Positions 10,106-17,312 of a stretch of 64,000 nt of DNA are shown here, one piece after another. The position numbers and the translations under genes are program-made. The notes below the pieces were generated by a model. That model was not told where the DNA came from, ran no database searches, and saw only the letters and a program-made list of their open reading frames with translations. Within the stretch, counting starts at the first letter, position 1. Each line of letters starts with the position of its first letter. The stretch comes from Lentisphaeria bacterium (lineage in GTDB: Bacteria > Verrucomicrobiota > Lentisphaeria > Victivallales > Victivallaceae), in the NCBI GenBank assembly GCA_900768515.1, contig CAAGDG010000058.1, forward strand, positions 5,663 through 69,662, given 5' to 3'.

Positions 10106-10134
10106 TTGACAACCCGCACCGGCAGGTGTATATT
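10106..10134 (+). promoter_or_regulatory. Sigma70-like promoter (TTGACA, 17 nt, TATATT) for the IscU-like/GGGtGRT operon.
   Basis: ttgaca-acccgcaccggcaggtg-tatatt, 47 nt before the AAGGAGA-ATG at 10181. Confidence 0.55.
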
Positions 10135-10180
10135 ACTGAAAATCCGCACCGTAAACCAAATCCTCGTAAGGAGAACCAAC

Positions 10181-10885
10181 ATGAGTTGTCCGTATCAGTG
10201 CTCGCACGAAGTTGAGCAGATGTGCCGCGTCGCCAAAGGCGCCAAGCATGGTCCGGCCCCGATTCCGGAAGAAGGGAAGTGGGTCAAATCCAAGGAAATT
10301 TCCGACGTTTCCGGCCTCACCCACGGCGTGGGCTGGTGTGCGCCGCAGCAGGGCGCCTGCAAGCTGACGCTGAACGTCAAGAACGGCGTGATCCAGGAGG
10401 CGCTGGTCGAAACCCTCGGCTGCTCCGGCATGACCCACTCCGCCGCGATGGCGTCGGAGATTCTGCCGGGCAAGACCATTCTCGAAGCGCTGAACTCCGA
10501 CCTGGTCTGCGACGCGATCAACGTCGCGATGCGCGAACTCTTCAAGCAGATCGTCTACGGCCGTTCCCAGACCGCGTTCAGCGAGAACGGTCTTCCGATC
10601 GGCGCCGGACTCGAGGACCTCGGCAAGGGACTGCGTTCCCAGGTCGGAACCATGTTCTCGACCCTGGAGAAGGGGCCGCGCTATCTGGAGATGGCCGAAG
10701 GCTACGTGCTCGAACTCGGACTCGACGAGAACAGCGAAATCATCGGTTACAAGTTCGTCCACCTCGGCAAGATGATGGAGGCGATCCGCAAGGGCGTCGA
10801 ACCGGCGGAGGCGTTCAAATCGAACGTCAAGAGCTACGGCCGCTTCGATGAGGCCGTCAAGAAGATCGACCCGCGCAAGGAATAA
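10181..10885 (+). CDS. IscU/NifU-N-like Fe-S scaffold-fold protein with a Cys-rich N-terminal extension and a ~100-aa C-terminal extension.
   Basis: GVGWCAPQQGACKLTLNVKNGVIQEALVETLGCSGMTHSAAMASEILPGKTILEA...LVCDAINVA aligns with IscU GAPACGDVMKLQIKV..GCGSAIASS...GKSLDEA...HCSILAEDAI, with all three Cys conserved. Extra N-terminal CPYQC...C. Start at MSCPYQ with RBS AAGGAGA. Confidence 0.7.
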   Translation: MSCPYQCSHEVEQMCRVAKGAKHGPAPIPEEGKWVKSKEISDVSGLTHGVGWCAPQQGACKLTLNVKNGVIQEALVETLGCSGMTHSAAMASEILPGKTILEALNSDLVCDAINVAMRELFKQIVYGRSQTAFSENGLPIGAGLEDLGKGLRSQVGTMFSTLEKGPRYLEMAEGYVLELGLDENSEIIGYKFVHLGKMMEAIRKGVEPAEAFKSNVKSYGRFDEAVKKIDPRKE

Positions 10886-10899
10886 AGGAGTCCAACGTC

Positions 10900-11898
10900 A
10901 TGAGCGTGAAATTTGAAGGTTACGAGCGCCGGATCGCCCAAATCGAAAAAGCGCTGAAGGAATACGGTCTCGAATCGCTCGAAGCGGCCCGCGACCTCTG
11001 TCTCTCGAAGGGTGTCAACGTCGAGGAGATCGTCCGCGGCGTGCAGCCGATCGCGTTTGAAAACGCGGTCTGGGCCTACACCCTCGGCGCCGCCATCGCG
11101 CTGAAGAAGAACTCGAAGAACGCCGCCGAAGCCGCTGAAAACATCGGCATCGGACTGCAGGCGTTCTGCATCCCGGGTTCGGTCGCCGCCAACCGCGAAG
11201 TCGGTCTCGGCCACGGCAACCTCGCCGCGATGCTGCTGCGCGACGAAACCAAGTGCTTCTGCTTCCTCGCCGGTCACGAATCGTTCGCGGCGGCGGAGGG
11301 TGCGATCGGCATCGCCAAGACCGCCAACAAGGTCCGCAAGGAGCCGCTCCGCGTGATCCTGAACGGCCTCGGCAAGGACGCCGCCTACATCATCAGCCGG
11401 ATCAACGGCTTCACCTACGTCGAAACCGAATACGACTACTACACCGGCGATCTCAAGGAGGTCTTTGAGAAGGCGTTCTCCAACGGTCCGAAGGCGGCGG
11501 TCAAGTGCTACGGCGCGGACGACGTCTCCGAGGGCGTTGCGATCATGATCAAAGAGGGCGTCGACGTCTCCATCACCGGAAACTCGACCAACCCGACCCG
11601 CTTCCAGCATCCGGTCGCCGGCACCTACAAGAAATGGGCGATCGAACACGGCCGCAAATACTTCAGCGTTGCCTCCGGCGGCGGCACCGGCCGCACGCTG
11701 CATCCGGACAACATGGCTGCCGGTCCGGCCAGCTACGGCATGACCGACACCATGGGCCGCATGCACGGCGATGCGCAGTTCGCGGGTTCGTCGAGCGTCC
11801 CGGCGCACGTCGAAATGATGGGGCTGATCGGCATGGGCAACAACCCGATGGTCGGCGCCTCGGTCGCCGTCGCGGTGGCCGTTTCCCAGGCGAAGTAA
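10900..11898 (+). CDS. GGGtGRT-family protein (uncharacterised family).
   Basis: Contains the literal SGGGTGRT motif. 332 aa. Lies 14 nt downstream of the IscU-like gene with its own AAGGAG RBS. Confidence 0.8.
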   Translation: MSVKFEGYERRIAQIEKALKEYGLESLEAARDLCLSKGVNVEEIVRGVQPIAFENAVWAYTLGAAIALKKNSKNAAEAAENIGIGLQAFCIPGSVAANREVGLGHGNLAAMLLRDETKCFCFLAGHESFAAAEGAIGIAKTANKVRKEPLRVILNGLGKDAAYIISRINGFTYVETEYDYYTGDLKEVFEKAFSNGPKAAVKCYGADDVSEGVAIMIKEGVDVSITGNSTNPTRFQHPVAGTYKKWAIEHGRKYFSVASGGGTGRTLHPDNMAAGPASYGMTDTMGRMHGDAQFAGSSSVPAHVEMMGLIGMGNNPMVGASVAVAVAVSQAK

Positions 11899-12059: not shown

Positions 12060-12572
12060 ATGATGGCGGGTTCCGGAAAAAAGATCGATGCGATGGAGAA
12101 AGCGCTGCGCATTCTCAATTTCCGCGCCTGCTCCGAACTGGAGCTGCGCAGGAAACTGCGGACTGCCGGCTACTCCTCCACGGAGACGGCCGACGCGATC
12201 GAACGCTGCAGAAAGCTCGGGGTCCTGAACGACCGGCTGCTGGCGGAGGATTACGCGCGGAGCCTCTCCGACCGCGGCTGCGGCGCACGGATGGTCCGGT
12301 TCCGCCTCGGCCGCCGGGGACTCGGCACGCGGAGCATCGAAGCCGCGCTCGAAGCGACCGCGGAGGGCGAGGCGGAAGCCTGCCGCCGGGCACTGGCGGC
12401 CAAACTGCGCACGCTCGAACGAGAAAGCGATCCGCGCAGAAAACGGGAGAAGGCGTTCCGGTTTCTGGCGGGACGGGGATTTTCCGCCGACCGGATCCGG
12501 GAGGCGTTTGCAGAAGCCGACTTTTCCGGCGGAACAACGGAGAAATGCGACGATGAGAATTTTACTGATTGA
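12060..12572 (+). CDS. recX: RecX-family regulatory protein.
   Basis: KALRILNFRACSELELRRKLRTAGYS and three helical repeats typical of RecX. No recA in the window. Confidence 0.65.
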   Translation: MMAGSGKKIDAMEKALRILNFRACSELELRRKLRTAGYSSTETADAIERCRKLGVLNDRLLAEDYARSLSDRGCGARMVRFRLGRRGLGTRSIEAALEATAEGEAEACRRALAAKLRTLERESDPRRKREKAFRFLAGRGFSADRIREAFAEADFSGGTTEKCDDENFTD

Positions 12573-13245
12573 GGATGACGCCCGTACCGCGGAATTCATC
12601 CTGAAAGGGCTGGCCCAGTCCGGATACACCACGATCCACGCCTCCGACGGGGCGGACGGCCTCTTCAAGGCGCGCCATGAAAACTGCGACCTGGCGATCA
12701 TCGACATCATGCTGCCGAAGATGGACGGCTTCACCGTGATCGAGAAACTGCGCGCCGCGGGTTCCACCCTGCCGGTGATCGTGCTCAGCGCCCGCAATTC
12801 GGTCGAGGACCGGATCAAGGGACTCCAGAACGGCGGTGACGACTACCTGGTCAAACCGTTTTCCTTCTCGGAACTGCTCGCCCGGATCCAGGCGCTGCTG
12901 CGCCGCGCCGCCTCCACCGCGGAACCGACCACCATCACGGTCGGAGACCTCTCGATCGACCTGCTCGCGCGAAAGGTCTACCGGGGAACGGAGCGGATCG
13001 ACATCCAGCCCCTCGAATTCAGCCTGCTCGAATACCTCGCCCGCAACGCCGGGCGCGTTGTCTCCAAAACCATGATCATGGACCACGTCTGGGAGTACAA
13101 TTTCGACCCGCAGACCAACATCGTGGAGACCCGGATGTGCCGGCTCCGCGAGAAAATCGATAAGCCATTCGCGGAAAAGTTGATTCATACGGTACGGGGA
13201 TTCGGCTATGTGCTCGAACCGCAGGCGGATTTTCAGCACCGTTAA
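12553..13245 (+). CDS. OmpR-family response regulator (REC plus winged-helix).
   Basis: MRILLIEDD...DLAIIDIMLPKMDG...LSAR. C-terminal trans_reg_C (VRGFGYVL). GGAGAAA RBS. Overlaps the recX 3' end. Confidence 0.85.
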   Translation: MRILLIEDDARTAEFILKGLAQSGYTTIHASDGADGLFKARHENCDLAIIDIMLPKMDGFTVIEKLRAAGSTLPVIVLSARNSVEDRIKGLQNGGDDYLVKPFSFSELLARIQALLRRAASTAEPTTITVGDLSIDLLARKVYRGTERIDIQPLEFSLLEYLARNAGRVVSKTMIMDHVWEYNFDPQTNIVETRMCRLREKIDKPFAEKLIHTVRGFGYVLEPQADFQHR

Positions 13246-14827
13246 GTTCCGGATCGCGTTCTGGTACGCGGTGCTCTTCGCCGTGACCGGCGCGGTTTCC
13301 CTGGCGTTCGTCTTCGTCGAACTGCGGCGGACCATGCTCCGGGGAATTGACCGCGCCCTCGAACGGGGTGTCCGAAACTACCAGATCGAATACCTGACCG
13401 GGAAACGGCATCAGCTGTTCGACCGCGAAGTGCCGCTCGACCGCCTCGCGCCGGAAGCCCGCCGCGCCTTCGAAGAACGGTTTCCGGGAGTGCAGCTGCT
13501 GCTCGTCTTTGAAACCCGAAACGCCGGGGGGCTCTACCAGACCGCCTTCGGGACCGTGAATCATCAGCTCTTTGAGCTGCGGCTCGAATCGGACGGCAGC
13601 GTCTACTCCCGCCGGATCGATCCGGCCTATCATCTGCCCCTGCTGCGGCAGACGCTCGATGACGCCGCACGGGCGGAGGGCGCCAACAACCTGGTCTGCC
13701 GGCTGCTTTCCGCCTCCGGCAAGGTCGAGGCTGGCACCCCGCTGAGTCCCGGCAACGGGTTTCCGCCGGCGGACCCGGCAAAACAGACCCTCCGCACAGT
13801 CGGCCAATACCGGGTTCTGCAGCTGCCGCTCTTCGACGGAGGGGTTCTCGAAGCCGCCCGCTCTCTGGAGGCGACGGACCGGCTGCTGCGCGAATATGTG
13901 CTGACCGCGTCCGGAGTCTTCCTCGCACTGCTCGCAGTCTCTCTGCTGGTCGGCTGGCTGCTGGCCGGAAAGTTCCTCGCCGGCATCCGGAGAGTCAGCC
14001 AGGCCGCCCGGGAGATCGCCGGCGGAGATTTCAGCCGCCGGGTCGAATCCCACGGCGACGGCAGCGAAATCGAAGAGCTGGTCGAAGCCTTCAACACCAT
14101 GAACGCCAACACGGAACGGCTGTTTGAAGAACTCCGCACCGTCACCGACGACGTCGCCCACGACCTGCGTACGCCCCTGACCCGGATCCGGGGACTTGCC
14201 GAAATCACGGTCAGCGGACCGCAGGAGCTGGCACGCTACCAGGAGATGGCCGCGGTCACGGCGGAAGAGTGTGCCGGCATGCTGCAGATCATCAACACCA
14301 TGCTCGAAATCACCCGGATGGAACACGCGATCGAGACGCTCGAGCGCAACCGGCTCGACTGGGCGGAACTGCTCCGCCGCGCGGAAGAACTCTACCAGCC
14401 TTCCGCCGAAGATCTCGGAATCCGTCTGGAGTTCCGTCTTCCGGAACACGCCTGGGTCTTCGCCGACCGGCTCAAGCTCCAGCGCGCAGCCGCCAACCTT
14501 CTCGACAACGCACTCAAATTCACCCCCTCCGGCGGAACCGTCACCGTCACACTGGAACCGGAAGAAACCCAATGGCTGCTGCGGGTCGCCGATACCGGCT
14601 GCGGCATCGCGCCGGAAAACATCGAGCATGTATTCGAGCGTTTTTTCCGCAGCGATCCCAGTCGCTCCCGCCCCGGGAACGGACTCGGACTGTCGCTGGT
14701 CCGGGCGATCGCCCTCGCGCACGGCGGCAGTGTCGAAGTTTCAAGCGAACTGGGCAGAGGAACCGAATTCCGTTTCCGCCTTCCGAAGGCAGAAGAACTC
14801 CCCGGAGAAACGGAGAATGGGAAATGA
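13208..14827 (+). CDS. Sensor histidine kinase (2 TM, HAMP, HisKA, HATPase).
   Basis: HDLRTPLTRIRGLAEI H-box. GLGLSLV / GTEFRFRLP ATPase motifs. Start overlaps the RR by 38 nt. Confidence 0.85.
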   Translation: MCSNRRRIFSTVKFRIAFWYAVLFAVTGAVSLAFVFVELRRTMLRGIDRALERGVRNYQIEYLTGKRHQLFDREVPLDRLAPEARRAFEERFPGVQLLLVFETRNAGGLYQTAFGTVNHQLFELRLESDGSVYSRRIDPAYHLPLLRQTLDDAARAEGANNLVCRLLSASGKVEAGTPLSPGNGFPPADPAKQTLRTVGQYRVLQLPLFDGGVLEAARSLEATDRLLREYVLTASGVFLALLAVSLLVGWLLAGKFLAGIRRVSQAAREIAGGDFSRRVESHGDGSEIEELVEAFNTMNANTERLFEELRTVTDDVAHDLRTPLTRIRGLAEITVSGPQELARYQEMAAVTAEECAGMLQIINTMLEITRMEHAIETLERNRLDWAELLRRAEELYQPSAEDLGIRLEFRLPEHAWVFADRLKLQRAAANLLDNALKFTPSGGTVTVTLEPEETQWLLRVADTGCGIAPENIEHVFERFFRSDPSRSRPGNGLGLSLVRAIALAHGGSVEVSSELGRGTEFRFRLPKAEELPGETENGK

Positions 14828-15429
14828 GCAGACGCCGCCGCCTCGCCGCACTCTTGCTGTTCCTCTTATGCTGTGGCAGGCTGCCGGCGGGCGGGATCCC
14901 ATACGACGAGCTGCCGGGGGCGTTTGACGCGCCGGCAACCCCGCTGCAGCTCGGCGTGTTCCCGGCAGTTGCGCTCTTCGATTCCGGCACCCCGGTTTAC
15001 GGCGCCGCCCTCGGCATGCCCATGCTCATGCAGGGGAAGGTCCGCGGAATTCAGGTCGGCGGAGTCGCCGCCATAACCGGGTCCGTCATCGGCGTGACTG
15101 TCGCGCCGATCAATATTTATGACGAAAACTTCGGCATCGCCATCGGCATGCTCAATCTTGCGGCGCACGACTTCGGCGGCGGCCAGATCGGAATCTGGAA
15201 CACCTCCCTCTCCCGCGACGAAAAAAGCTTTCAACTCGGCGGAGTCAACATCGCGGCGGCAGACGGCGTCCAAATCGGAGGAATCAACGCCGCGACAGGA
15301 AACAACGTGCAGTTCGGCATCGTCAACCGTTCCGGTTCCGGGCTGCAGTTCGGACTGCTCAATTACAGCGACAACCCCGATGCCTGGCTGCCGTTCACCC
15401 TGCTCTTCAACTTTGTTCCGGAAAACTGA
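14824..15429 (+). CDS. Small secreted/lipoprotein with seven tandem ~13-aa [ILF]GG[IV]N...G.Q repeats.
   Basis: MSRRRRLAALLLFLLCCG signal/lipobox. Repeats QVGGV, IAIGMLN, QIGIWN, QLGGVNI, QIGGINA, QFGIVN, QFGLLN. ATG overlaps the HK stop (ATGA). The track ORF 14269..15429 is over-extended antisense/in-frame noise. Confidence 0.7.
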   Translation: MSRRRRLAALLLFLLCCGRLPAGGIPYDELPGAFDAPATPLQLGVFPAVALFDSGTPVYGAALGMPMLMQGKVRGIQVGGVAAITGSVIGVTVAPINIYDENFGIAIGMLNLAAHDFGGGQIGIWNTSLSRDEKSFQLGGVNIAAADGVQIGGINAATGNNVQFGIVNRSGSGLQFGLLNYSDNPDAWLPFTLLFNFVPEN

Positions 15430-15454
15430 TCCCGTGTGGAAGCATTTTTCTCCA

Positions 15455-15617
15455 GATTGCCGATTTGTAATCCGACGGCAATCTTCCGGCAACTCCCGCC
15501 ATCTATATTGGAGCAGTAGAAGGCGGAAACGCCGACTGAGAGATTGACCCCCATCTCCCAAAACTGCCGGGTTTCGGAGACACCCCAACTCCGAAACCCG
15601 GCCTCTTTTTTCTGTTT
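15455..15617 (+). repeat. Copy 1 of a ~150-nt structured intergenic element (candidate sRNA): 9-bp stem AGATTGCCG-N13-CGGCAATCT, then a conserved TTGAC..CCCCCAT.CCCAA block, then a terminator.
   Basis: Seen in sequence. Shares ordered conserved blocks with copy 2 at 15776..15962. Confidence 0.5.
15567..15617 (+). terminator. Intrinsic terminator (end of element copy 1).
   Basis: CCGGGTTTCGGAG-acaccccaa-CTCCGAAACCCGG followed by CCTCTTTTTTCTGTTTT. Confidence 0.65.
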
Positions 15618-15775
15618 TGCCGGGACTGCGGGAACGTTTTCAAGGAAAATACGCCTTTCGCGCCGGCGACAGCGTCCCGGCCAGGATTCGGACCGGCGGC
15701 GAAAACAAAAGGTGTCCGACGGCGAAAACCGGCTTTCGCCGCCGGGTTTCGGGCGGAAATGACAGAAAAAAGGGA

Positions 15776-15962
15776 AGATTGCCGATTTGCAATTTTCCGG
15801 CAATCTTCCAGACAACTTACGACATTATTTTAGAGAACAGTAGGCAGCGATCCATTCCGAATGCGGGAAACCGCCGGAATGTTGACATAGCCCCCATTCC
15901 CAACCCCGCCGGGTTTTCCGCGTGACCTGACCCCTCGCGCGGAGAACCCGGCACTTTTTTTG
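15776..15962 (+). repeat. Copy 2 of the structured intergenic element (candidate sRNA).
   Basis: AGATTGCCGATTTGCAATTTTCCGGCAATCTTCC ... GTTGACATAGCCCCCATTCCCAACCCCGCCGGGTTTTCCGCG...CGCGGAGAACCCGGCACTTTTTTTG. The terminator stem differs from copy 1 but pairing is preserved. Confidence 0.5.
15908..15962 (+). terminator. Intrinsic terminator (end of element copy 2).
   Basis: GCCGGGTTTTCCGCG...CGCGGAGAACCCGGC hairpin followed by ACTTTTTTTG. Confidence 0.65.
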
Positions 15963-15965
15963 TCT

Positions 15966-17312
15966 TCACTTTTCCAGCTGGAAGAGAAAGACGTTTCTGG
16001 CCCCCTTCGAAAGCTGCAGCTTCCGGCGGACCAGGCCGCCGTCGGTGGAAATCTCCACATCGTAGTCGCCGTAGAAACCGTGGAAACGGTTGTCGCCGCC
16101 CGGAACGAAATTGATCTCCGTCTCGGTCCGCCACTCTTCGCGGATCAGGCGGCGCAGCACCTTGTAGGCCGGTTTCGGCGTGAAGTCGTAATTGACCAGT
16201 CCGGCCCGGAGCCGATTCTCCCCCTCCTCCGACCCCGGAGGAGCATAGGCGGCGGTGCCGTCGACCAGATTCCACCAGGTGATCCCCTCCACCGCCGCAT
16301 GGCTGAACCAGAGCCGGTAGAGCTTCTCCGTCGCCAGCTCCTGGAAACGGTCGCCGTCACCGAGGGAACGGCGGCTGATCACGCTGACCTCGGAAAGGTT
16401 GACCGGTACGCCCAGCTTTCCGAAAAGGTCGAGCACCGCCAGAAGATTGCGGGGACGCAGCGGAACCTCCGCCTCCTGCAGCATCGTGTCGAACATGTGG
16501 TACTGGACGCCGAATCCGCCGAGACGGAAACCGTGCTCCAGCAGCCGCTGCGCCAGCAGAAACGAGGCGGTATTGTCCCCCTGGAAACTCCACCAGGCGC
16601 GGTCGTCGTTGTAGATGAGCTGGCTGTCCGGGAACAGCTCCGCGGCCCGGCGGAAGGCGTAATCGACGTATCCGTCGCCGAGTTCGGGGATGTCGGGACG
16701 CAGCAGCGGGAAGCGCGTCTGCGCCTCGTTGACGGTATCCCAGATGTGAATCCGGTCCGCATAACGCGCCGCGATCGCCCGCATCCGGCGGTCGAGCGCG
16801 GAACGAAATCCCGCCACGGTGGTCGGAATCCACTTCGGCAGGAACTGATGCCAGCAGAGCGGATGCCCCTTCGGAATCAGGCCGAAACGGTCGCAGAACT
16901 CCAGCACCCGGTCCGGCGGCGGGCGGCGGTAGATCGGCGGAGAATGCCGTTCGAAGCGGGGCTTTCCCTCTTCCGGCTCGAGGTCGGACCAGTAGAACGG
17001 AATCACTGCGTGGTTGAAAACCGCGGCGAAGGTCTGCTCGTAGGCCTCATTCTGTTCCGCCTCCGGGAACTGGTCCACCATGAAGGCGTTGCAGCCGAAT
17101 TTGAATTCACTGCCGGTCTGCCGCAGCCGGACCCGGCCGCCCGGCAGAGGCTTTCCCGCGGCATCCAGAAGCTCGACCCGCCCGAATCCCTTGCGGTTGC
17201 ATTCGGTTCCGGTCCGGATGCGGAACTCCACCTCGGAATCCTCCTCCAGGAGATACTTCAGAATTCGCACCGCCTCCTCGGACATCCCTTTCTCAACCAT
17301 CTTTTCCTCCAC
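15966..17312 (-). CDS. Glycoside hydrolase family 10 (endo-1,4-beta-xylanase-like), cytoplasmic (no signal peptide).
   Basis: IHIWDTVNEA (acid/base motif), IYNDDRAWW (YNDY-like), NLSEVSV (nucleophile region). Confidence 0.75.
   Translation of the reverse strand: MEEKMVEKGMSEEAVRILKYLLEEDSEVEFRIRTGTECNRKGFGRVELLDAAGKPLPGGRVRLRQTGSEFKFGCNAFMVDQFPEAEQNEAYEQTFAAVFNHAVIPFYWSDLEPEEGKPRFERHSPPIYRRPPPDRVLEFCDRFGLIPKGHPLCWHQFLPKWIPTTVAGFRSALDRRMRAIAARYADRIHIWDTVNEAQTRFPLLRPDIPELGDGYVDYAFRRAAELFPDSQLIYNDDRAWWSFQGDNTASFLLAQRLLEHGFRLGGFGVQYHMFDTMLQEAEVPLRPRNLLAVLDLFGKLGVPVNLSEVSVISRRSLGDGDRFQELATEKLYRLWFSHAAVEGITWWNLVDGTAAYAPPGSEEGENRLRAGLVNYDFTPKPAYKVLRRLIREEWRTETEINFVPGGDNRFHGFYGDYDVEISTDGGLVRRKLQLSKGARNVFLFQLEK

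Follow-up and report, generated by a model that had tools for sequence, protein, structure and literature searches.

Predicted tandem small RNA genes with HprR/CusR-type promoters downstream of a two-component system operon in a Lentisphaeria bacterium

A 64,000-nucleotide stretch of Lentisphaeria bacterium DNA (GenBank assembly GCA_900768515.1, contig CAAGDG010000058.1, positions 5,663 to 69,662 of the forward strand; hereafter the window) harbors an operon for a two-component system (TCS) followed by a 536-bp gap (15430-15965 of the window), in which we analyzed two similar intergenic units, termed U1 and U2. The operon is located on the plus strand and consists of the genes for an OmpR/PhoB-type response regulator (RR), a sensor histidine kinase (HK) and a lipoprotein-like protein; it ends at 15429. 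A convergent gene on the minus strand encoding a GH10 glycoside hydrolase ends at 15966; it is the boundary of the gap only and lies outside the system. The gap is near-identical among ten strains of the window species, a member of the Victivallales (Lentisphaerota) which is common in gut metagenomes. An earlier note, made from the letters of the window alone, had described the units as two copies of a structured element of about 150 nt and as candidate paralogous small RNAs (sRNAs). The features discussed here are compiled in Table 1.

Table 1. Genes and predicted features in and around the gap between the TCS operon and the GH10 gene (window coordinates; offsets are counted from the A of ATTRC).
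Feature	Position	Strand	Description
OmpR/PhoB-type response regulator gene (RR)	12553..13245	+	230 aa; heavy-metal/HprR/CusR-like subfamily; Pfam Response_reg and Trans_reg_C
Candidate U2 target (weak lead), kinase translation start region	13191..13211	+	GGU..GGGGAU..GGCUAUGU, covers AUG
Sensor histidine kinase gene (HK)	13208..14827	+	539 aa; HAMP-HisKA-HATPase_c; overlaps 3' end of RR gene
Lipoprotein-like gene	14824..15429	+	201 aa; LA_2272-type surface repeat; last gene of the operon
Box 1, predicted operator	15454..15493	+	ATTGC 15456-60, GTAAT 15467-71, GCAAT 15478-82, GCAAC 15489-93
-10-like hexamer TATATT, predicted U1 promoter	15504..15509	+	offset 48
Predicted sRNA U1	15515..15611	+	about 97 nt; 5' end placed by -10
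U1 GNRA-type hairpin GGCG-GAAA-CGCC	15522-15533	+	fold prediction
U1 unpaired C-rich segment CCCCCAUCUCCCAA	15548-15561	+	fold prediction
U1 terminator (terminator 1)	15566-15602	+	stem 15566-15579/15589-15602, 14 bp, perfect; 9-nt loop ACACCCCAA; then T6 (U6 in the RNA) at 15606-15611
Box 2, predicted operator copy	15776..15816	+	ATTGC 15778-82, GCAAT 15789-93, GCAAT 15800-04, degenerate fourth ACAAC 15812-16
-10-like hexamer TATTTT, predicted U2 promoter	15826..15831	+	offset 48
Predicted sRNA U2	15838..15961	+	about 124 nt; 5' end placed by -10
U2 two-tier hairpin CAUUCCG...GCGG-GAAA-CCGC...CGGAAUG	15853-15881	+	fold prediction
U2 unpaired segment UUGACAUAGCCCCCAUUCCCAACCCC	15882-15907	+	conserved in L011
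U2 terminator (terminator 2)	15908-15952	+	stem 15908-15925/15935-15952, 18 bp, 89% complementary; conserved 9-nt loop CCUGACCCC; then T7 (U7 in the RNA) at 15955-15961
GH10 glycoside hydrolase gene	15966..17300	-	convergent; Pfam PF00331, E = 4.9e-30

Both units are located on the plus strand (15454-15612 and 15776-15962), contain shared blocks in the same order and end in a strong intrinsic terminator each. The earlier note was right in this observation, apart from its start at 15455, since the repeat begins one base earlier. This repeat, AGATTGCCG-N13-CGGCAATCT, occurs exactly twice in the 64 kb (15454-15484 and 15776-15806); shuffling gave an expectation of 0.05, and two matches were reached in none of 100 shuffles. 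Alignment of unit 1 with unit 2 revealed 75% column identity. Among the blocks listed as shared, TTGAC and GCCGGGTTT are exact in both units, but U1 has GCAGTAG instead of ACAGTAG, and the pattern CCCCCAT[CT]CCCAA does not describe U1, which has CCCCCATCTCCCAA, longer by one base. The GC hairpins and T-runs ending both units were located as claimed; a simple terminator scan missed them because it limits loops to 8 nt and the loops here measure 9 nt. The two terminator stems do differ between the copies, but these differences, presented as covariation expected of functional RNA, show only that both hairpins persist as terminators. Whole-unit fold z-scores were -6.9 and -6.2 and are dominated by the palindrome and the terminators. 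Between the lipoprotein stop codon and box 1, no hairpin with T-run was found; thus, read-through from the operon would end at the U1 terminator. A REP-like or mobile intergenic element was considered and rejected: the window contains only two copies, both in the gap, and across species the box described below is tied to the kinase gene or to the promoters of specific cargo genes.

As judged from its sequence, the 9-bp "stem" at the start of each unit corresponds to the first and third half-sites in a DNA box with an 11-bp period, ATTRC-N6-GYAAT-N6-GCAAT, and is not an RNA hairpin; half-site 2, which is conserved, falls within the supposed hairpin loop. A -10-like hexamer TAnnnT at offset 48 (counted from the A of ATTRC) was detected in every one of the 21 non-redundant boxes of Lentisphaeria, as compared to a mean of 0.3 at other offsets. 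The hexamer was absent from the pattern used for the box search and is therefore independent of it. This fixed position downstream of the stem speaks against the idea that the stem is part of a 150-nt RNA; furthermore, the same box is found ahead of protein-coding genes in other species and matches box and geometry of Escherichia coli HprR/CusR. The inverted repeat is better explained by the second suggestion of the earlier note, namely a site at which the adjacent OmpR-type regulator binds; such binding is predicted. A sigma-70 consensus scan detected no complete promoter and no -35 consensus in the units, as expected of an activator-dependent promoter with an OmpR/PhoB-family activator at the -35 position. 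Each unit is predicted to comprise about 60 bp of promoter/operator and a transcript of about 97 or 124 nt, with the transcript start set about 7 nt past each -10 hexamer. A sigma-54 reading of CGGCAAT-N4-CCGGCAA (GG-N10-GC) was rejected; the -12 element is poor, and TAnnnT at a fixed distance fits a sigma-70 -10 hexamer.

By its design, the promoter appears to be a member of the HprR/CusR class. The E. coli HprR/CusR box was published as CATTACAAAATTGTAATG (PMC9302797; bioRxiv 10.1101/2021.09.09.459708). An inverted repeat of the type ATnACAA-NN-TTGTnAT was found in both units (U1, ATTGCCG-AT-TTGTAAT; U2, ATTGCCG-AT-TTGCAAT), and the clade consensus of half-sites 1 and 2, ATTRCMR-NN-TTGYAAT, follows the same design as the E. 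coli box. In E. coli K-12, the hiuH promoter (ATTACAAAATTGTAAT) carries GTAAG in the register of half-site 3 and TATCCT at offset 49, and the cusC promoter (ATGACAATTTTGTCAT) carries GTCAC in this register and TAAAGT, also at offset 49; these features were read from the sequence (L046 2371-2425; L047 1013-1067; loci outside the window are designated by L numbers), not from mapped starts or footprints. With an offset of 48 as compared to 49 in E. coli, the promoter geometry here would be that of known HprR/CusR-dependent promoters: an inverted-repeat box, a third half-site 11 bp further on and TAnnnT at a near-equal offset. The half-sites in the window differ in being G(C/T)AAT, with the left arm ATTGC. 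Additionally, in E. coli both promoters serve protein operons which diverge from the TCS genes, whereas those described here are located downstream of the kinase gene, are co-directional with it and drive predicted non-coding RNAs.

The encoded regulator resembles the same subfamily, with a best match just below its cutoff. Its best NCBIfam match was TIGR01387 cztR_silR_copR (269.3 bits; cutoff, 279.2), followed by HprR (235.9; cutoff, 353) and CusR (230; cutoff, 420), and it is 48% identical to E. coli HprR. The kinase best matched TIGR01386, heavy-metal sensor kinase (229.6 bits; cutoff, 292.55). Two lineages, L012/13/36 and Victivallis vadensis, have the 16-bp palindrome alone upstream of the RR gene, which is consistent with autoregulation; unlike in L012 and V. 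vadensis, no palindrome is present upstream of the RR gene in the window species. The TCS is preceded in the window by the genes for a 234-aa protein and a GGGtGRT-family protein, which form a conserved pair, and by recX (10106-11898, 12060-12572), whose 3' end overlaps the start of the RR gene. The GGGtGRT pair is also found near a paralogous TCS in L018.

A scan of 185,579 species genomes with the box pattern yielded 22 matches, 16 of them in Lentisphaeria/Victivallales, including two in V. vadensis DSM 14823, which carries the orthologous TCS with a box immediately behind the kinase gene (L035/L048). The box is located directly 3' of an orthologous kinase gene or its operon in at least eight Victivallales lineages (loci L011, L012/13, L014/15, L016, L022, L023, L028, L033, L035, L036 and L038). 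The kinase orthologues form a graded series from 74% down to about 48% identity, and every lineage with a kinase at least about 48% identical carries the box directly downstream of the kinase gene or operon. In L011 (kinase 74% identical), the box is followed by both units; in L012/13/28/36 (53-56%) by one terminator-ended unit; in L016/22/23/33 (about 48-55%) by a different terminator-ended unit; and in L014/15 (50%) by the gene for an acidic secreted protein of 157 aa. No downstream box is present for the kinases of L017-L019, which are 42-45% identical and probably belong to paralogous systems. The box has two kinds of cargo, namely terminator-ended non-coding units and small secreted or membrane proteins. 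At other loci, the protein cargo includes acidic secreted proteins, 85-157 aa in length, as well as peptides of 21-37 aa, and a membrane protein which by eye resembles a family-2 glycosyltransferase is also preceded by the box. The combination of promoter and terminator without an open reading frame (ORF) recurs in other lineages with unrelated sequences. The neighbor beyond the box-cargo unit varies (LpxK, SecDF, a hypothetical protein), and the unit stays beside the kinase gene.

Several further loci were recorded. In the V. vadensis-type locus L048 (5610-5875), the post-kinase box drives a unit of about 190 nt with the terminator loop AUCCCCCCC and two ORFs, one acidic of 14 aa and one hydrophobic of 22 aa (MSKFTCEVIFIAAASIAVAWLV); this unit may be a dual-function RNA or encode an MgrB-like feedback peptide. 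Another Victivallis locus, L032, has tandem boxes 262 bp apart (2098 and 1836, minus strand), with one very short ORF (36 aa or 21 aa) behind each; the ORFs look like signal peptides or transmembrane segments and make the locus a protein-coding counterpart of the tandem layout in the window. In L029 (3027) and L037 (1103), a palindrome-only copy (ATTGCCGAAAAGCAAT) is located about 800 bp upstream of a full box with a C-rich, sRNA-like unit under its control; neither locus yielded a TCS gene. Box matches outside Lentisphaerota (L027 378-300, L041 1744-1660 and L039 4311, all on the minus strand) retain extended CTCCGGCAAT repeats. L027 carries the E. coli box exactly; here, in Spirochaetota, and in the Desulfocapsaceae match L041, TAnnnT is found exactly at offset 48, and the boxes lie, by eye, upstream of an HtrA-like and a MoxR-like gene. 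These 8-kb loci yielded no OmpR-family regulator. Judged from these boxes, the promoter class may be cross-phylum.

The predicted transcripts U1 and U2 share a GCGG-GAAA-CCGC-like hairpin, UUGAC, CCCCCAUYUCCCAA and the base of the terminator. Alignment of the gap with that of L011 revealed conserved islands, namely the RNA bodies and, ahead of them, the boxes and -10 hexamers; the inter-unit spacer of 160-400 bp could not be aligned. The U1 core is about 98% identical between window and L011 (by eye from the alignment), and nucleotide identities of the flanking genes amount to 88.5% for RR, 81% for GH10, 76% for HK and 62% for the lipoprotein gene; the predicted RNA cores thus seem about as conserved as the flanking genes, or more so. 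The orthologous pairs are closer than the paralogous pair, hence the duplication would be older than the split of the two species. In the outer stem of the U2 5' hairpin, both bases of two pairs differ between window and L011 (AU to GC, UA to CG), with no change in the unpaired segment or the inner GCGG/CCGC stem, and the U1 terminator shows one double change. Covariation with homologs from related genomes, which the earlier note had looked to for support, was found to the extent of these few compensatory changes; with two sequences per unit they are supportive, not decisive. The claim of two paralogous, terminator-ended and apparently non-coding units is borne out by the retention of the pair in a second species, the conserved cores and the lack of any conserved ORF between window and L011. 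By sequence, U1 and U2 thus have the marks of independent transcription units: a -10 hexamer at fixed geometry, strong terminators and no conserved ORF.

A scan of metagenomes for the sRNA core (CCATYN{0,1}CCCAAMMCYGCCGGGYTT) returned only the same species (L042) and three apparent chance matches, which by eye are located in seeming ribosomal-protein genes. Distant homology of U2 to the units of the L016/L022/L023 type is not claimed; MAFFT/RNAalifold alignments were incoherent and had a positive covariation term. The spacer between the units (15612-15775; L011 5497-5745) is unalignable between the species, yet contains short GC-rich repeats in both: CCGGCGGCGAAAAC / CCGACGGCGAAAAC at 15693 and 15716 in the window, together with a hairpin at 15716-15745, and about six copies of CCGGCGGCAG(A/G)GG in L011.

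The predicted unpaired positions of 13 box-driven, terminator-ended units from several lineages, some of the units being near-identical, comprise 203 C, 150 A, 80 U and 50 G, with 19 runs of at least four C and no run of at least four G. Exposed C-runs in loops or linkers are a hallmark of sRNAs which pair with Shine-Dalgarno (SD) sequences rich in G. The C-rich unpaired regions of U1 and U2 probably pair with G-rich ribosome-binding sites as well. Exact or near complements of the C-rich segments within the window were self matches only, and the top matches of a sliding duplex scan of the window were located in apparent coding regions and had ordinary tail energies. With up to three mismatches, TTGGGAGATGGGGG was matched twice in the window, both times in unit 1, once as the exact complement and once in the terminator with three mismatches; shuffling gave 8.8 expected matches, and at least two were reached in all 100 shuffles. 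Long G-rich/C-rich 14-mers seem to be under-represented in the window.

Pairing was also analyzed for the start regions of 12 nearby genes, amounting to 48 comparisons. Only the combination of U2 with the kinase gene stood out. The region 15884-15906 of U2 (ACAUAGCC...AUUCCC) and the kinase start region were predicted to form a duplex of -22.9 kcal/mol, with an empirical p of 0.006 per 45-nt window. This pairing is conserved in L011; its 8-nt exact complement, ACATAGCC, was equalled in 16 of 300 shuffles. Whole-sRNA duplex energies against the 12 start regions were uninformative. In L014, the leader contains a 10-nt exact complement to the start region of its own kinase gene, which was equalled in 1 of 300 shuffles.

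Taken together, two paralogous sRNA genes in tandem probably occupy the gap, each with an activator-dependent sigma-70-type promoter under the control of the response regulator encoded upstream. From these data we infer binding of the regulator to the box, the start sites, stable accumulation of the RNAs and a trans-acting anti-SD mechanism with its targets, which may operate as follows. The kinase would sense a periplasmic or envelope signal, with metal or oxidant stress being plausible by family resemblance, and would phosphorylate the regulator, which would then bind the array of GYAAT half-sites spaced at 11 bp. Half-sites 1 and 2 would act as an HprR/CusR-type inverted repeat centered about 52 bp upstream of the start, half-site 3 would stand in for the -35 element, and RNA polymerase would be recruited to the TAnnnT hexamer. 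Transcription would be halted by the strong intrinsic terminator after about 97 nt in U1 and about 124 nt in U2. Each RNA would begin with a 5' hairpin, continue with an unpaired segment rich in C and poor in G (CCCCCAUYUCCCAA) and end in a terminator whose loop is C-rich. Because of their exposed C-runs and the precedent of RsaE/RoxS, described below, we propose that U1 and U2 are the non-coding arm of the regulon; their C-runs would most likely pair with G-rich SD regions and repress translation. The U1 terminator would also end the operon transcript, U1 being laid out as an sRNA of a 3' untranslated region (3'-UTR) with its own promoter.

A number of points weigh against this interpretation. 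The fourth half-site would fall inside the promoter spacer, and the transcript starts were placed by the position of the -10 hexamer alone. Homologs of U1 and U2 were found in two species only, and covariation comes from two sequences per unit with 1 to 2 double changes each. Both RR and HK score just under the curated cutoffs of the heavy-metal subfamily. Furthermore, C-rich loops are in part to be expected from the high GC content of the genome, no convincing target site was found within the 64-kb window, and the pairing of U2 with the kinase start was not significant after correction for 48 comparisons.

Alternatively, the gap could consist of regulatory DNA only, i.e., decoy or insulator sites plus terminators for the convergent operons, with short transcripts devoid of function. 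Convergent genes on both sides of the gap do need terminators, the window searches identified no target, and terminator covariation alone is no proof of sRNA function. However, the segments from -10 hexamer to terminator are the best-conserved DNA of the region (about 98%, by eye, for the U1 core as compared to 62-88% for the neighboring genes), and two species retain both complete promoter-terminator units together. On the minus strand, no U-run follows either terminator, which would make both poor terminators for GH10, and the ORF-free design recurs elsewhere with unrelated sequences. We therefore regard this explanation as unlikely.

Each unit of about 150 nt could also be a single structured RNA, whose 5' AGAUUGCCG/CGGCAAUCU hairpin would be transcribed from a promoter farther upstream or by read-through from the operon. 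The stem of 9-12 bp is perfect in both copies and folds stably, and the hairpin would be part of any read-through transcript since no terminator separates the operon from box 1. This possibility is quite improbable in view of the DNA box: three or four half-sites recur every 11 bp and the arms account for two of them, with the middle half-site conserved within the "loop"; the -10 hexamer follows the stem at a fixed distance in all 21 boxes; box and geometry match those of E. coli HprR/CusR; and the box also precedes protein-coding genes. Moreover, the arms change without compensation in U1 of L011, which reads AAATTGCCG...CGGCAACCT.

There is very little to suggest that the units encode small proteins or dual-function RNAs, as found for the corresponding position of some Victivallis genomes. 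The peptides and acidic secreted proteins found as box cargo elsewhere and the 22-aa hydrophobic ORF of the V. vadensis-type unit would fit such a role, and a TTG-initiated ORF of 72 aa overlaps U1. This ORF, however, is the only one in U1, which contains neither ATG nor GTG; it runs through the terminator and is frameshifted in L011 by a 1-nt indel in the C-run. The sole ATG ORF of U2, with 9 codons within the hairpin, lacks conservation in L011, and no suitably placed SD-like sequence was found in either unit. It is likewise hardly credible that the promoters direct transcription into the convergent GH10 gene for antisense or interference effects, with U1 and U2 as incidental leaders: U2 is aimed at the GH10 3' end with its terminator abutting the stop codon, but this terminator, an 18-bp GC-rich stem with U7, should terminate efficiently, the neighboring gene varies by species while the unit stays by the kinase gene, and U1 is followed by U2, not by a gene.

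For the preferred interpretation of U1 and U2 as two sRNA genes, known families were examined. Comparison with Rfam, which the earlier note had named as a check, assigned neither unit to a known family: no Rfam 15 family reached its gathering score in the 64-kb window, including OmrA-B, RsaE and CcsR1. At E <= 10, the best match in the units was Scr3202 with 23.8 bits (threshold, 52), essentially a terminator match. The only Rfam match in eight related loci was an unrelated thiamine pyrophosphate (TPP) riboswitch (RF00059, 65.7 bits) in L016 (2479-2583, minus strand), located upstream of a Thi4-family gene. U1 and U2 would therefore be an example, absent from Rfam, of TCS-controlled paralogous sRNAs, which is a known arrangement, here in a gut bacterial phylum that has received little study.

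OmrA and OmrB are encoded by adjacent, partially homologous sRNA genes in one intergenic region and are activated by an OmpR-family TCS; they share end sequences around a divergent center and feed back on the ompR-envZ mRNA (PMC2588501). The predicted genes resemble this enterobacterial pair (RF00079) in the adjacency of paralogous sRNA genes and in OmpR-family control, and the weak U2-kinase lead parallels the ompR-envZ feedback. Unlike OmrA/OmrB, which are located away from envZ-ompR, have their seed at the 5' end and use Hfq, U1 and U2 are situated directly 3' of the kinase operon with an internal C-rich segment as candidate seed; they show no sequence or structure similarity to the pair and no Rfam match to it even at E <= 10. 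RsaE/RoxS, the best studied of the sRNAs with exposed C-runs, pairs through C-rich regions with G-rich SD sequences and is activated by ResD/SrrA binding upstream of the promoter (PMC4409812). A length of about 100 nt, C-rich loops and unpaired segments and two-component control, the latter predicted here, are common to this RNA of Firmicutes and to U1 and U2. In contrast, RsaE/RoxS is single-copy, its sequence is unrelated without an Rfam match here, and it belongs to another phylum and to another regulator subfamily.

Further systems suited for comparison are 3'-UTR sRNAs with their own promoter, of the DapZ and MicL type, and CpxQ. Like these, U1 shares the terminator of the upstream operon and has its own promoter just past the last stop codon; at the 3' end of an operon which itself belongs to the regulon, it would represent an envelope-type output of that regulon. 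In contrast, the promoter here is intergenic, 25 nt past the stop codon, not within the coding sequence, and a second complete unit follows. The CcsR1-4 or "cuckoo" RNAs of Rhodobacter (RF02791) are tandem, stress-induced sRNAs with C-rich (CCUCCUCCC) anti-SD loops which are co-transcribed with a DUF1127 gene from one RpoHI/HII promoter. Tandem short sRNAs with C-rich loop motifs are the feature in common with U1 and U2; the only RF02791 match in the region (16214-16303, 12.8 bits; gathering threshold, 65.3) is located outside the units.

A more far-reaching, and rather doubtful, idea is that the position behind the kinase gene serves as a conserved slot for a regulator-activated feedback module with interchangeable cargo. 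On this speculative reading, the slot would hold two sRNAs in the window species, with the unpaired segment of U2 antisense to SD and start codon of the kinase gene (13191-13211), and, in one relative, an mRNA leader complementary to the start of its own kinase; with the same low confidence, the small hydrophobic or acidic peptides in Victivallis, MgrB-like in concept, would be further cargo. If this were true, RNA and peptide solutions to one feedback problem would replace each other at one locus, and the promoter geometry with three half-sites would be common to E. coli, Lentisphaerota, Spirochaetota and Desulfobacterota.

A search of the literature on Victivallis and small RNA found no sRNA work for this group; U1 and U2 would be the first candidate sRNAs for which a regulator can be identified in a Planctomycetes-Verrucomicrobia-Chlamydiae (PVC) group member from the human gut. 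The promoter/operator model with three to four GYAAT half-sites at an 11-bp period and TAnnnT at offset 48 would allow the TCS regulon to be read out in any Victivallales genome, and the promoter geometry of E. coli HprR/CusR appears to extend across phyla. One promoter slot which drives sRNAs or small secreted or membrane proteins depending on the lineage would be a compact natural case of cargo turnover, and the feedback hypothesis is testable in the cultured V. vadensis DSM 14823.

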